A stretch of 64,000 nucleotides of DNA from Escherichia phage HY01, in the sequence record NC_027349.1. One strand, 5' to 3'. Position numbers and translations under genes: made by a program. Below the pieces are notes generated by a model. The model had not been told where the DNA came from. It worked only from the letters and a program-made list of their open reading frames with translations, and ran no database searches. The stretch's first letter is position 1. Each line of letters begins with the position of its first letter. Below are positions 3,790 through 63,579 of the stretch, piece after piece.

Positions 3790-5320
3790 CTACTGTTATC
3801 CATTTACCATTAATCTGTACTTCATCATTTTCATTTACAATAATTGTATCACCATTTAGTTCGAGAGTAAACCACTCACCGTCTTCTTTTTCTTCAAACG
3901 CTTTTTCACCAAGAACCAATCCAGTGATTGCGCAAATATCAAATAGTTCTTTGTTTTTAAGCATATCAGCATATGACATACCCCAACTGTTGAGAACTTT
4001 ACCACGCAATGGATAACCACCGTGAAGTTCTTTATCACGAACATCAATAAGATAGCCGATAGCAGAATCACCCTCAGTCAAGAAAAGAGTAGTATCAGCA
4101 TCTTTACCGCAAAGATTCGCTTTAATATGTTTATGAACCTTAGCTTTAGAAGCCTTTTTAGCTGCTTTAGTTTCTGCTGCTTTTTCTGCCGCCAATTTAC
4201 GAGCCAAGGCAGCTTCAATAATTGGCATTAAAATTGCTTCATTATTTAAAATAGCGCGTGAAATCTTTTTAGCATCAAGCTGAATATGACTACGAATTTC
4301 ACCAAATGGAGAAGTCAAACGCTCTTTAGTTTGAGAATCAAATCGCATGTTTTTCATATCACGAACAAACATAACGATAGTCAAACATTCTTTAACCCGT
4401 GCTTTAGTTACATCAATTTTGAATTTACGTTTGATTTGCGGAATAAGGTCTTCACAAATATCATCCATAACACAGTCAATATGATGGCCACCATTCTTAG
4501 TATGAATGTTATTGACGTATGTTAATTGACGAAAACCATCCGGTGAACGACCAACCGCAATAGAGCAATTTTCCTGTTCTTGAACGATAGCATGCTCATC
4601 ATATTGGCGTGCGTATTTCTTAAAATTACCCTGAACCTTTTTACCATTAAAGGTAAATTGAATATCAGGATAAACTACTGCAAGTGTCTGGAGACGATCT
4701 AGTGTAATGTCAAGATAAACTTGGGACAGCTCATTAGTTTCAAATGACATAAAATCAGGAATGAAAGTAACACGAGTTCCTTTCCATTTTCCAGGAATAG
4801 TTTCCCATGATTTATTTTCCATGCCATTTGAACAACGAACTACAATATTATTTTGACCGTCGCCAGTTTCACCGACAAACATCACAGAAAAAATGTTTGT
4901 CAAACTAGAACCAACACCATTCATACCGCCGGTGACGCGTTCTTTATCATCACCGAAGTTACCACCTGCTTTTGGAATAGTCCACGCAGCAACAGGACCA
5001 GGAATTTCTTCGCCGGTAGGTGTTTTAACCATCGCTTGTGGAATACCGCGACCGTTATCTTCAACTGTTACTTGATTGTTTTTGATAGTAACATTAATTT
5101 TATTTGCGAATTTAAACTTAGTACGAATACCTTCATCTACTGAGTTATCGATAATTTCATCAATAAGCTTAACAAGACCAGGTACATACTGAACACTTTC
5201 CCATTTACCAAACAGAAAGCGCTCATGCATTTCATTAGCAGAAGAACCAATGTACATGCCGCTACGCTTTTTGATATGTTCAATATCGCTCAGAATTTTA
5301 ATTTCATTCTTAATCATCAC
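3767..5320 (-). CDS. 39: DNA topoisomerase II large subunit (GyrB-like ATPase)
   Basis: 517-aa ORF with GHKL ATPase motifs (IDNSVDE, DNGRGIP, GLHGVG-like). Confidence 0.93.
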   Translation of the reverse strand: MMIKNEIKILSDIEHIKKRSGMYIGSSANEMHERFLFGKWESVQYVPGLVKLIDEIIDNSVDEGIRTKFKFANKINVTIKNNQVTVEDNGRGIPQAMVKTPTGEEIPGPVAAWTIPKAGGNFGDDKERVTGGMNGVGSSLTNIFSVMFVGETGDGQNNIVVRCSNGMENKSWETIPGKWKGTRVTFIPDFMSFETNELSQVYLDITLDRLQTLAVVYPDIQFTFNGKKVQGNFKKYARQYDEHAIVQEQENCSIAVGRSPDGFRQLTYVNNIHTKNGGHHIDCVMDDICEDLIPQIKRKFKIDVTKARVKECLTIVMFVRDMKNMRFDSQTKERLTSPFGEIRSHIQLDAKKISRAILNNEAILMPIIEAALARKLAAEKAAETKAAKKASKAKVHKHIKANLCGKDADTTLFLTEGDSAIGYLIDVRDKELHGGYPLRGKVLNSWGMSYADMLKNKELFDICAITGLVLGEKAFEEKEDGEWFTLELNGDTIIVNENDEVQINGKWITVGELRKNL

Positions 5321-57668: not shown

Positions 57669-57896
57669 TCATTTTGGTTTACCTTCTTTAACGAAATCAG
57701 GATAAGGATAAAATCCTGAATAAAATCCTTCACCTTTATGATTGATGCATCCTTTATTAGAACAATAGCACCAATAGTCGAAATCACAGGCCATTTCATC
57801 ATTACATAAAGCAAAAACAACAGGCCATTTACACTTTTCACAATGGGCATTTTTAAGAATACTAGTTTGGCTCATAACCATGTAACCTTTAAGCAA
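57669..57896 (-). CDS. small Cys-rich protein (possible metal-binding)
   Basis: 75 aa with 8 Cys (CEKCKWP...CNDEMACDFDYWCYCSNKGC). Confidence 0.4.
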   Translation of the reverse strand: MLKGYMVMSQTSILKNAHCEKCKWPVVFALCNDEMACDFDYWCYCSNKGCINHKGEGFYSGFYPYPDFVKEGKPK

Positions 57897-58084
57897 TATT
57901 CTTCTACATGTTGTTTACGACCTTTCCTATCAATGAAGGTATATTCAACGAATGTTCCAATATAGTCTTTATCTACATCATGAGGACTATTAATTGGGCA
58001 TTTAGTACGGCAAATGCGTTTCCATTGACGAATAATTTCCACTTTGTTTTTAGGATCAAACGGATGCGGGCAATGTACTTTCAT
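57872..58084 (-). CDS. small Cys/His-rich protein
   Basis: 70-aa ORF. Confidence 0.35.
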   Translation of the reverse strand: MKVHCPHPFDPKNKVEIIRQWKRICRTKCPINSPHDVDKDYIGTFVEYTFIDRKGRKQHVEEYCLKVTWL

Positions 58085-58535
58085 AATCCACCACTATTAA
58101 ATCAATATCAGGAGTAAACATGTCGATTAATTTAGAAACCTTATCCCAATCACCGCCAGCAATACCACAACCTATGCGTGGAATGTAAATTACTGGTTTA
58201 AACAGAAGGGTCTCTGCCTGTAGATTTAATTCTATCATGCAGTTTACTAAAGCACCATAATCAAGATTAGGACCCGGTTCGTATTGCGTATACAGGTTAT
58301 AGCATATACCAAATCCCGTAGGACTATGTTTAAAAACAATAGACATATCGCCTAATTTATCGCGAGAACCGTACTCGGTAGTAGTTTTATCTATTTCTAA
58401 AATTTTAGGATAGGCCCTCGCTAATTGACCCGCTACACCTGAACCCATAGTATGAAAGCAGTTGCACCCGTGCGCAATAATATTACCTTGAAGAAATAGG
58501 GCGACAATATCGCCCTTGATATATTTTACAATCAT
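58056..58535 (-). CDS. macro-domain protein (ADP-ribose binding / ADP-ribosylhydrolase-like)
   Basis: 159 aa with macro-like motifs GDIVALFLQGNIIAHGCNCFHTMGSGVAG and IPRIGCGIAGGDW. Confidence 0.55.
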   Translation of the reverse strand: MIVKYIKGDIVALFLQGNIIAHGCNCFHTMGSGVAGQLARAYPKILEIDKTTTEYGSRDKLGDMSIVFKHSPTGFGICYNLYTQYEPGPNLDYGALVNCMIELNLQAETLLFKPVIYIPRIGCGIAGGDWDKVSKLIDMFTPDIDLIVVDYESTLPASV

Positions 58536-58873
58536 CTAGTACTCAATCCTCGATTATAAGAATCTACCAAACGGTCAACCATTGAATGACAAGCGGCTTT
58601 ATCTTTCTCCTCCGCAACTGAACATTCTAAGGTATTCCACTTTTTAGCATATCGTTTTAATAAAGTATCGTTCTTGTATCTACTTGATTTATCTCTTTCT
58701 CCGTCTTTATATGCATATATTAATTTCTGCGCAAATTCAGCTTGACATGCTTTATTTTTCCCACAATAATCCGCGGCAGTACGGTTTACATACTCTCTAA
58801 TTTCAGTGTATGATGTATTTGCTAACGCAGAAAATGAAATTAATCCTACACATAAAACCAAAATTTTAGTCAT
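58532..58873 (-). CDS. secreted Cys-containing protein
   Basis: 113 aa with N-terminal signal peptide MTKILVLCVGLISFSALA. Confidence 0.45.
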   Translation of the reverse strand: MTKILVLCVGLISFSALANTSYTEIREYVNRTAADYCGKNKACQAEFAQKLIYAYKDGERDKSSRYKNDTLLKRYAKKWNTLECSVAEEKDKAACHSMVDRLVDSYNRGLSTR

Positions 58874-59411
58874 TTACTATTTCCAACAGTTTATTATTTT
58901 TAAGGTAGTTAGCCTTTTCTAGGACTTCAGAAGCATATTTAGAACCTGCTTTAACATTCCATCCCGAATTATAAGAGGATATTGCCTTTCTTATATCGCC
59001 CTTATGTATATTTAACCAATAAGAAAGTTCAATGTACGCCCAGGAAGCTGAATTGGACCGTTTATTCAACATTCTTTTTATTTCAGCATCGGTCATATTA
59101 TAACCAAGTTCCTTAACTCTTGCTCGCATGGTCGGCAAATAATTTTGGAACATTCCATAGGCATGATGCTTTGGTTTAGATTTTAAATTAACTCCGGCAG
59201 AGCTTTCTTGCCATAAAATAGCAGCCATTATATGACCTAATCCACTCTTGTGGATATTTTTGTGTGTTTTATATTTTCCATCCTTAGAAAATTGTTCCCC
59301 GAATTGATATGCGTAACGCATGTTATCGAGTTGGACATTACTGAAAGTATGCTCGGAGCTATGTGCCATCATTGAAATGGCCAATAGACCAGCGAGTAGT
59401 GCTTTTCTCAT
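58866..59411 (-). CDS. secreted lytic transglycosylase-like protein (SLT domain)
   Basis: 181 aa with signal peptide and SLT motifs (LWQESS, AYGMFQ, SYNSG). Confidence 0.6.
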   Translation of the reverse strand: MRKALLAGLLAISMMAHSSEHTFSNVQLDNMRYAYQFGEQFSKDGKYKTHKNIHKSGLGHIMAAILWQESSAGVNLKSKPKHHAYGMFQNYLPTMRARVKELGYNMTDAEIKRMLNKRSNSASWAYIELSYWLNIHKGDIRKAISSYNSGWNVKAGSKYASEVLEKANYLKNNKLLEIVND

Positions 59412-59418
59412 GCTTACC

Positions 59419-59880
59419 TCATTGAGTTTTAATTACTGCTTTAGAAGCCTTTCCTGGTAAACGACGACTGTTAATAATTGCCATCCTGCACTGAAGCGAC
59501 GGGTCTTTGAACTTCGCATTAGGTTTACAAACTGTAAATCCAAGCCAAAGATTTCCATCTGTGATTTCTAAACGCCCAGGACGATATTCAACCCCATCAA
59601 TAAAATCCTCGTCAATGTCAGGACGCGGAGGCATACTCAGGAATTCATTAACTTCTAAAACATGGTCTTTTATTTTGTGGAATAATTCAAAAACATATGT
59701 CTCATCAATCTCCCGTTGAATTGCACGATCAAGAAGATGTTGAGAATATTTTAGATGAAACGATGAGACCCCTGCTGCTTTTGATGCCTCACGAATCTCA
59801 TTGTTAATTTGACGAAACTCCGACTCAAAGTGACGACGGAGCTTATTTCGACGGATAAAAACTTCTGTGTTGATAGTCAT
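59419..59880 (-). CDS. regB: RegB endoribonuclease
   Basis: 153 aa; matches T4 RegB as recalled. Confidence 0.88.
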   Translation of the reverse strand: MTINTEVFIRRNKLRRHFESEFRQINNEIREASKAAGVSSFHLKYSQHLLDRAIQREIDETYVFELFHKIKDHVLEVNEFLSMPPRPDIDEDFIDGVEYRPGRLEITDGNLWLGFTVCKPNAKFKDPSLQCRMAIINSRRLPGKASKAVIKTQ

Positions 59881-59939
59881 GTTATTCTCCTCTTAACTGA
59901 TAGAAAAATTATACCACAGTCAAGAGGAAAAGTAAACAG

Positions 59940-62572: not shown

Positions 62573-62989
62573 TTAAATGTAAATATTTTTGCCGTAATAC
62601 TTGTACCAGTGTGGCTTCATTAAAATTTTTTTATCGAGTCGTTGTTGACTCAATTTAATAGCTGATTTGCATGGATTATAATCATTTTTCCATTCTGCTG
62701 GAATATCGCTGATGTCAGGAACTTCAGTATCTTTTATACTAAACCCACGTTTTAAGCATTCCATTATAATGTCTGATTGACGCTTTCGCAAAAATTCTAA
62801 CTTGTCGTAAAAGAACGTAACATGACCAGAACCTAAAATAAACTCGGAAGATATTTTAAAATCTTTAACCCGCTTACCATTTGCCACGTGTTTACGAACT
62901 ATACCAAAAACGCGTGGCAATTCACGGTATTCTGCGATTAAATGTTGATCAGCAAGTTCAGATACTAAAGTCAAATTAATACGAGTCAT
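62573..62989 (-). CDS. denV: endonuclease V (pyrimidine dimer DNA glycosylase)
   Basis: 138 aa [17 protein letters not shown]...; matches T4 endo V family. Confidence 0.9.
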
Positions 62990-63048
62990 TTTATCCCTCC
63001 AAGTAACTGTGAATATACTATCACAATTCTAGGAGAAAGTAAACCACT

Positions 63049-63579
<531 letters not shown>

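Follow-up and report, generated by a model that had tools for sequence, protein, structure and literature searches.

What do two small adjacent genes with export-type N-termini do for a T4-like phage, and why does one of them carry the name of a factor that would act in the cytoplasm? We addressed this question for the genes vs.1 and vs in a 64,000-nt stretch of Escherichia phage HY01 DNA (NC_027349.1), hereafter called the window. Both genes lie on the minus strand. The gene vs.1 (58866..59411) encodes a 181-aa precursor predicted to be an exported murein glycosidase of glycoside hydrolase family 23 (GH23) with the soluble lytic transglycosylase (SLT) fold, and vs (58532..58873) encodes a 113-aa precursor predicted to be an exported four-helix protein and annotated as 'valyl-tRNA synthetase modifier'. 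An earlier note, made from the letters alone, had described a secreted pair here with the SLT gene second; the pair corresponds to T4 genes vs.1 and vs, and the order it gave holds in plus-strand coordinates and not in transcription order, where vs.1 comes first. Over the 2 kb around the pair, the window matches Escherichia phage PEC04 (Tequatrovirus) at 100% identity and hundreds of T4-like phages at 98%, and the T4 gene order regB-vs.1-vs-tk.4 is kept, with all four genes on the minus strand. A comparison with T4 vs.1, which the note had suggested, gave 99% identity between the Vs.1 proteins; Vs is ~96% identical to T4 Vs, with cluster P0078 taken as the T4-type sequence. On balance, the pair as a whole is best explained by an early periplasmic murein glycosidase, Vs.1, with a co-exported partner, Vs.

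Part of this picture is not new. The SLT match of Vs.1 was published for six of six T4-like genomes (Nolan 2006), in a paper citing PSI-BLAST matches that the review of the T4 genome had given before (Miller 2003), and several GenBank records already name vs.1 an SLT or lytic transglycosylase protein. The SLT core of vs.1 is an already known prediction, ordinary in kind, and the earlier note, in offering the pair as an open observation, overlooked both this publication from 2006 and the fact that the partner is vs, with its synthetase annotation. Our literature search turned up no paper in which Vs.1 was studied by biochemistry or genetics; the only phenotypes found are that vs.1 and vs are dispensable and that disrupting them mildly lowers fitness in liquid culture, more so in minimal medium. 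Cell-wall remodelling, lysis inhibition and superinfection control, the roles suggested in the earlier note, are candidates for which the analysis gave evidence in neither direction. New here are the proposed identity of Vs as the partner, the conserved adjacency of two export-type proteins and their shared fitness defect. Features read from the Vs sequence also conflict with its long-standing annotation.

Mature Vs.1 would comprise about 163 aa (18.8 kDa, pI 9.7 and zero cysteines, all computed). The precursor matches the Pfam SLT domain (PF01464) over residues 61-154 with 23.4 bits against a gathering cut-off of 21.3 (E 4.8e-5), and in an alignment of 35 homologues (41-99% identity) 32 of the 35 match SLT individually at E <= 0.01, the best at 1.3e-7. 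The ES, GMFQ and SYNSG signatures listed previously are all present, as parts of motif I (WQ-E69-S70), motif II (G86-M-F-Q89) and motif III (S146-Y-N-S-G150), to which Y159 adds motif IV. E69, G86, F88, Q89, Y147, N148, G150 and Y159 are invariant in the 35 homologues, and at least 90% of these also have S70. The catalytic SLT core, delimited by the Pfam match and the invariant columns, spans residues 59-172 (58896..59237, minus strand); within it, the codon GAA of Glu69, the predicted catalytic acid, lies at 59205..59207 (minus strand; ttc on the plus strand). An AlphaFold2 model built from the 35-sequence alignment predicts a lysozyme-like all-alpha fold with a predicted local distance difference test score (pLDDT) of 88.4 and a predicted template modelling score of 0.82; its only weak parts are the signal peptide and the last residues, with pLDDT 53-55 at residues 1-20. 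In agreement with the SLT fold proposed in the earlier note, the top Foldseek matches of this model in the PDB are all GH23 proteins, with weak E-values (best 7e-3). The fold comparison gave, as unlabelled figures, 12.5 for MltF, 12.0 for Slt (P. aeruginosa), 11.8 for Cj0843c, 11.7 for Ra-ChiC, 11.3 for Slt70, 11.2 for both the salmon g-type lysozyme and MltC, 10.5 for EtgA and 10.1 for MltE. A single-sequence search of the PDB with Vs.1 returned nothing useful (best E 0.84, a flagellar protein), its profile found only non-significant g-type lysozyme matches among PDB sequences (E 0.3-2.7), and neither Vs.1 nor Vs matches NCBIfam. Judged from its sequence, Vs.1 is very likely an exported GH23 murein glycosidase.

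Which chemistry would such an enzyme use? Vs.1 might be a GH23 hydrolase, that is, a goose-type lysozyme, or a catalytically weak murein-binding protein. In a weak profile alignment with ostrich g-type lysozyme, the conserved E-S of Vs.1 falls on the RES-H motif of the lysozyme, and the lysozyme Asp that follows G-L-M-Q falls on the invariant Tyr91 of Vs.1. Goose-type lysozymes have disulfide bonds and an acid after G-L-M-Q; Vs.1 has no cysteines and, in this weak alignment, no acid at that place. The only invariant Asp or Glu residues among the Vs.1 homologues are E69 and E128, and the 35-homologue alignment contains no invariant Asp between or after motifs I and II. Since a tyrosine aligns with the lysozyme Asp and no other invariant acid lies nearby, a single-carboxylate chemistry of the transglycosylase type is likelier. 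Vs.1 is thus more likely to be of the lytic transglycosylase type, even though the product type is not readable from sequence, and we consider the hydrolase or weak-binder alternative improbable.

Export of the two proteins was assessed with our own heuristic for n-, h- and c-regions rather than SignalP, in a survey of 56 loci (51 from IMG/VR, four GenBank phages and the window) and in database clusters. The signal peptide of Vs.1 is predicted to occupy codons 1-18 (MRKALLAGLLAISMMAHS; 59358..59411, minus strand), with cleavage between AHS and SE and a mature N-terminus of SEHTFSNVQLDNMR; that of Vs likewise occupies codons 1-18 (MTKILVLCVGLISFSALA; 58820..58873, minus strand), with predicted cleavage between ALA and NT. 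Each has a K/R n-region, an h-region of 13-15 residues and small residues at -3 and -1. A signal-type N-terminus was found at 54 of the 56 Vs.1 loci and in 75 of 77 Vs.1 database clusters, as well as in 55 of the 56 ORFs (open reading frames) directly after vs.1, all but one of which belong to the Vs family, and in 42 of 45 Vs database clusters. The background among other ORFs of the same loci was 49 of 549, so the claim that two adjacent genes here encode signal-peptide proteins stands, by this heuristic, far above background. The exceptions that were inspected are truncated or mis-started ORFs, save for an unrelated ORF after vs.1 in locus L005. Among Vs.1 homologues, the signal region is 32% identical and 66% hydrophobic, vs. 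59% and 41%, respectively, for the mature part; an N-terminus that is hydrophobic yet variable is the pattern of signal peptide evolution. Near-identical phages differ in Vs mainly at the signal peptide, including 2-aa indels in the c-region. In five loci, which form one clade, Vs has, in place of this signal peptide, a lipoprotein signal with the lipobox LSGC (MKKLFVLLVVFALSGC-K), a predicted element that makes no sense for a cytoplasmic Vs. A leaderless form would have no internal Met to start from before residue 98. We conclude that Vs is probably exported.

Another feature of Vs that bears on its location is its cysteines. The precursor has a mass of 12.9 kDa and the mature protein would have about 95 aa and 11.0 kDa, with four conserved cysteines in the arrangement C-x5-C and C-x8-10-C and a conserved Y-x-x-G-L at the C-terminus. 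The AlphaFold2 model of Vs is of low confidence (pLDDT 68); it contains four helices, and each cysteine pair flanks a helix-helix turn. In this model, the placement is the arrangement expected of two stapling disulfides in an exported protein. Vs matches PHROG 1256 (phrog_1256, 'valyl-tRNA synthetase modifier') at E 7.5e-40, and its database relatives all carry the precomputed Pfam assignment PF26829. A single-sequence search found six Vs clusters and a profile search 45. The ORFs downstream of vs.1 in Dhakavirus, Jiaodavirus and Acinetobacter phages (105-122 aa) share the Vs signal, cysteine pattern and Y-x-x-G-L, and hhalign joins distant Vs homologues with 96.3% probability (E 2e-9). Vs clusters with a long contig recorded are all on phage-sized contigs (about 155-176 kb), and all cluster sources are T4-like phages save one record labelled Acinetobacter baumannii, on a 169-kb contig. 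A single-sequence search of the PDB with Vs gave zero matches, and Foldseek with the low-confidence model found only generic helical bundles (best E 0.96), with no Spackle-like or inhibitor-like match. Vs thus shows no sequence or fold likeness to the known lysozyme and transglycosylase inhibitors Ivy, PliG, MliC and Spackle, a weak negative given the confidence of the model and one without bearing on the function of Vs. A Pfam match to Cauli_AT (E 0.074) was rejected as noise.

The two genes are also held together. As read from the sequence, the end of vs.1 and the beginning of vs share 8 nt (ATGACTAA; 58866..58873, minus strand), and the vs start is preceded only by a weak GGAA Shine-Dalgarno-like element; translational coupling from vs.1 to vs across the overlap is plausible. 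A Vs-family ORF lies directly 3' of vs.1 in 54 of the 56 loci, with a gap of -8 to +3 nt, compared with regB directly upstream of vs.1 in 49 and tk.4 directly after vs in 26. In seven Acinetobacter-phage loci, the flanks lack regB, tk.4 and tk and the vs.1-vs adjacency is kept. Since the pair alone persists in these loci, it stands out despite the frequency of regB-vs.1. In one Slopekvirus, three other genes separate vs.1 from vs, and both retain signal sequences. Phage records with a relative of Vs.1 number 2083 and extend to Ackermannviridae and Felixounavirus. As a side observation, a further signal-peptide ORF directly follows the Vs homologue in Klebsiella phage JD18 (locus L004, 2863-3255) and Acinetobacter phage AC4 (locus L006, 2821-3246), giving a run of three export-type genes. 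These third ORFs (130-141 aa, mature start WEKL or WEQL, end ...YKIP or ...YKFE) look homologous to each other by eye, and no counterpart was seen at the corresponding position of the window.

Published T4 data provide information on timing and fitness. The mRNAs of vs.1 and vs are classed as early, and both proteins were detected and classed as middle (PMC9697503 supplements). In the HIDEN-SEQ transposon study, vs.1 is non-essential, with 46 of 52 sites hit, and reads per site after liquid competition were 27-34 for vs and 15-23 for vs.1, against 179 for regB, 290 for tk.4, 650 for vs.3 and 265 for vs.4 (bioRxiv 10.1101/2025.11.20.689424). Reads per site in vs and vs.1 are lower than in these four neighbours by a factor of roughly 5 to 40, typically about 10. 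When lysogeny broth (LB) and M9 minimal medium were compared, vs was the most depleted gene (log2 fold change -2.19, adjusted p 0) and vs.1 moved in the same direction (log2 fold change -0.87, p 0.0055, adjusted p 0.155), and a clean vs deletion impaired plaque formation in M9-glucose only; the authors read the minimal-medium depletion of vs as a translation-related role (bioRxiv 10.1101/2025.11.20.689424). A common fitness defect of vs.1 and vs fits one pathway. As an observation unrelated to vs.1-vs, the same comparison (Extended Data Table 6, sheet S8) detects nucleotide-metabolism genes besides vs: insertions in nrdA, nrdB and td are relatively enriched in M9, and those in regA are depleted (log2 fold change -1.40).

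The timing bears on a further alternative, in which Vs.1 would serve lysis as an auxiliary or reserve enzyme, kept inactive at the membrane until the holin fires, as in signal-anchor-release (SAR) endolysins. SAR endolysins are expressed late and span the membrane with an N-terminal SAR domain, a stretch of about 18-22 weakly hydrophobic residues that stays uncleaved. In favour of such a role, a lytic phage would here secrete a muralytic enzyme, the name 'putative lysin' is given to distant homologues in some GenBank records, and lysis-timing genes, among them rI, are found no more than about 3 kb from vs.1. However, the h-region of Vs.1, about 13 residues ending in an A-x-S cleavage site (A-H-S before S), is too short for a SAR domain, its mRNA is early and its protein appears in mid-infection, not late. 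Insertions in t and in the spanin genes pseT.2 and pseT.3 are almost absent from the libraries, whereas those in vs.1 are tolerated at most sites, indicating that Vs.1 is no substitute for t or the spanins; e mutants, which still have vs.1, are not known to lyse. The endolysin e, a T4-type lysozyme of family GH24, is encoded separately (63049..63543, minus strand) and has no significant similarity to Vs.1 (BLASTP E 0.09). The earlier note was therefore right to set the enzyme apart from lysozyme e, and Vs.1 shows neither the sequence similarity nor the close fold similarity to e expected of a GH24 endolysin. What the two have in common is the phage, a lysozyme-like superfold and a muralytic activity, which for Vs.1 is predicted. 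We regard a role of Vs.1 as such a lysis enzyme as very improbable, and the pair would stand apart from the holin-endolysin pathway.

A more serious rival concerns Vs. Here, Vs would be a cytoplasmic factor binding host valyl-tRNA synthetase, its N-terminus would not serve export or only a fraction of the protein would leave the cytoplasm, its adjacency to vs.1 would be inherited gene order and Vs.1 would act alone. The annotation as a synthetase modifier is universal, and the strong depletion of vs in minimal medium, in the reading of the HIDEN-SEQ authors, agrees with it. The high conservation of the regB-vs.1 adjacency makes synteny alone weak evidence for a partnership, and several phage groups have Vs.1 without Vs. 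A cytoplasmic Vs is difficult to reconcile with a signal-type N-terminus that recurs in nearly all adjacent ORFs and clusters (55/56 and 42/45) despite low identity, with a clade that swaps this signal for a lipoprotein signal, with four conserved cysteines placed at the two predicted turns between helices, where an exported protein would be expected to form disulfides, and with the position of the first internal Met. In addition, Vs with a His tag at its N-terminus proved insoluble when expressed in the cytoplasm of E. coli (PMC8076793). Weighing both sides, we find a cytoplasmic Vs rather unlikely.

The name of the gene has a history of its own. Neidhardt, Marchin and co-workers reportedly defined vs, between 1966 and 1980, by mutants failing to modify host valyl-tRNA synthetase. 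Such mutants are said to have been selected by the phenotype that they showed on hosts with a temperature-sensitive valS, and purification is said to have yielded a factor of about 10 kDa bound to the synthetase. We found no literature on how vs mutations were tied to this ORF, the original vs papers lying outside the search. The reputed mass of ~10 kDa is nearer to that of mature Vs than to that of the precursor, which is a lead and not evidence. It is conceivable, if doubtful, that the 'valyl-tRNA synthetase modifier' family consists of exported, disulfide-bonded periplasmic proteins (an outer-membrane lipoprotein in one clade) that work with Vs.1, and that the M9 defect of vs reflects the envelope and peptidoglycan, through controlled murein cleavage or turnover, and not translation. 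Modification of the synthetase would then be a second activity, an interaction arising after cell disruption or an assignment to the wrong ORF.

The mechanism that we propose for an early exported glycosidase and its partner would run as follows. The genes vs.1 and vs would be transcribed early, together with regB. The 181-aa Vs.1 precursor would be exported through Sec and lose its 18-residue signal peptide, and the mature protein (about 18.8 kDa) would be a single-domain periplasmic GH23 enzyme, active from early or mid infection. With Glu69 as sole catalytic acid, it would cut the bonds between N-acetylmuramic acid (MurNAc) and N-acetylglucosamine (GlcNAc) of host murein; its motifs and fold suggest that it would most likely be a lytic transglycosylase leaving 1,6-anhydroMurNAc ends. 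Vs would be translated from the overlapping next ORF and co-exported as an 11-kDa four-helix protein with two disulfides at helix-helix turns, or as a lipoprotein in one clade. Since Vs follows Vs.1 wherever both occur, we infer that the two may act together in the periplasm, where Vs would modulate, localise or restrain Vs.1 without being an obligatory antidote. A direct functional partnership between them is put forward only tentatively. The pair would be dispensable, with a modest fitness gain in liquid culture and a larger one in minimal medium.

Several points weigh against this mechanism. Export, signal cleavage and activity of Vs.1 and Vs are predicted only, the sequence of Vs.1 does not show whether its product has an anhydro or a reducing end, and the model of Vs is of low confidence and has no fold match. 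Vs is annotated everywhere as a binder of the cytoplasmic valyl-tRNA synthetase, and there is reportedly in vivo genetic evidence for this interaction from 1966-1980. Insertions in vs.1 could be polar on vs, via the 8-nt overlap and the weak vs Shine-Dalgarno element. Gene order is conserved generally among T4-like phages, as the regB-vs.1 adjacency illustrates. Aeromonas phage AS-gz, one Ackermannviridae phage and one Felixounavirus have a relative of Vs.1 but no Vs, two phages (loci L020 and L040) have a truncated Vs beside an intact Vs.1, and T4 without vs is viable (bioRxiv 10.1101/2025.11.20.689424). Because of these last three findings, we rejected Vs as an obligatory immunity protein or antidote for Vs.1.

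Among known systems, the closest are the family 1 lytic transglycosylases (the catalytic domain of Slt70, MltE/EmtA, MltC, MltD and MltF; PF01464, GH23), which belong to the same SLT/GH23 family as Vs.1. Unlike these enzymes, Vs.1 is a phage early protein of 163 predicted mature residues, without a lipid anchor and without extra domains such as the Slt70 superhelix, LysM or the ABC-like module of MltF; its identity to them is only 13-19% and its activity is predicted. Small secreted SLT proteins of the EtgA, VirB1 and P19 type (EtgA being compared through the structure of an EscI-EtgA fusion) work for a known machine that spans the envelope, whereas no such machine is linked to Vs.1, and a Foldseek search with the Vs model detected no similarity of Vs to the partners of such proteins. 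A conceptual likeness exists to T4 Spackle (gp61.3), a small, mainly helical periplasmic protein with a signal peptide that controls the gp5 tail lysozyme; here, too, a small exported helical protein would be combined with a phage muramidase. The target of Spackle is a GH24 enzyme that arrives with the virion and whose gene does not adjoin that of Spackle, whereas vs lies beside vs.1. By this analogy, an inhibitory role of Vs on Vs.1 is purely hypothetical.

Vs.1 is among the most widely conserved non-structural genes lacking an assigned role in T4-like phages. In the textbook picture, the phage attacks the wall only at entry (gp5) and at lysis (e), which a muralytic enzyme exported early in infection would contradict. 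If Vs is a periplasmic partner, a 50-year-old label in more than a thousand genome records needs revision, the minimal-medium phenotype of vs needs a different explanation and T4 gains, in addition to gp5 and Spackle, a second periplasmic pair of muramidase and regulator. Should the classical assignment hold instead, the question raised is how a signal-peptide protein that probably bears disulfides reaches a cytoplasmic enzyme.

The genes around the pair agree with the T4 layout. Upstream, regB (59419..59880, minus strand; Pfam REGB_T4, E 1.4e-68) would belong to the same early transcription unit, and its TGA stop falls within the vs.1 Shine-Dalgarno sequence (TGAGGT). A consensus scan found a sigma-70-like promoter match, TTTACT-17-TATAAT with an extended -10 TG, upstream of regB (59908..59936, minus strand). 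Promoter matches in the region overall are not above chance, and this one is only a candidate for the early promoter of regB-vs.1-vs. In the PEC04 record (KR233165.1), Vs.1 (3867-4412) and four unrelated neighbours are labelled 'endoribonuclease RegB domain-containing protein', and Vs.1 homologues in other records and UniRef carry similar 'endoribonuclease' or 'RegB' names, which looks like a mislabel carried over from the adjoining regB. Downstream and outside the exported pair, the macro-domain gene tk.4 (58056..58535, minus strand; Pfam Macro, E 1.3e-7) overlaps vs by 4 nt. In T4, tk.4 is adfM, encoding the anti-DarTG2 factor AdfM, and its deletion sensitises T4 to DarTG2 (bioRxiv 10.1101/2025.11.20.689424). 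A perfect, GC-rich hairpin (AGGGCGATATTGTCGCCCT; 58498-58516, both strands), followed by a T-rich tail, lies 16 nt past the vs stop, within the first codons of tk.4, and could be a terminator, attenuator or RNA-stability element parting regB-vs.1-vs from tk.4. Farther away, denV (62573-62989) is directly followed by e within 62573-63543 (minus strand); T4 has ipII and ipIII just past denV, both of which are absent from that spot here. Finally, a 75-aa cysteine-rich ORF (CEKC...C-x-x-x-x-x-C...CYC...GC) lies between tk and tk.4 (57669-57896, minus strand), in a stretch that falls between two annotated coding sequences of the PEC04 record and has none annotated itself; its sequence suggests a small zinc-binding protein.

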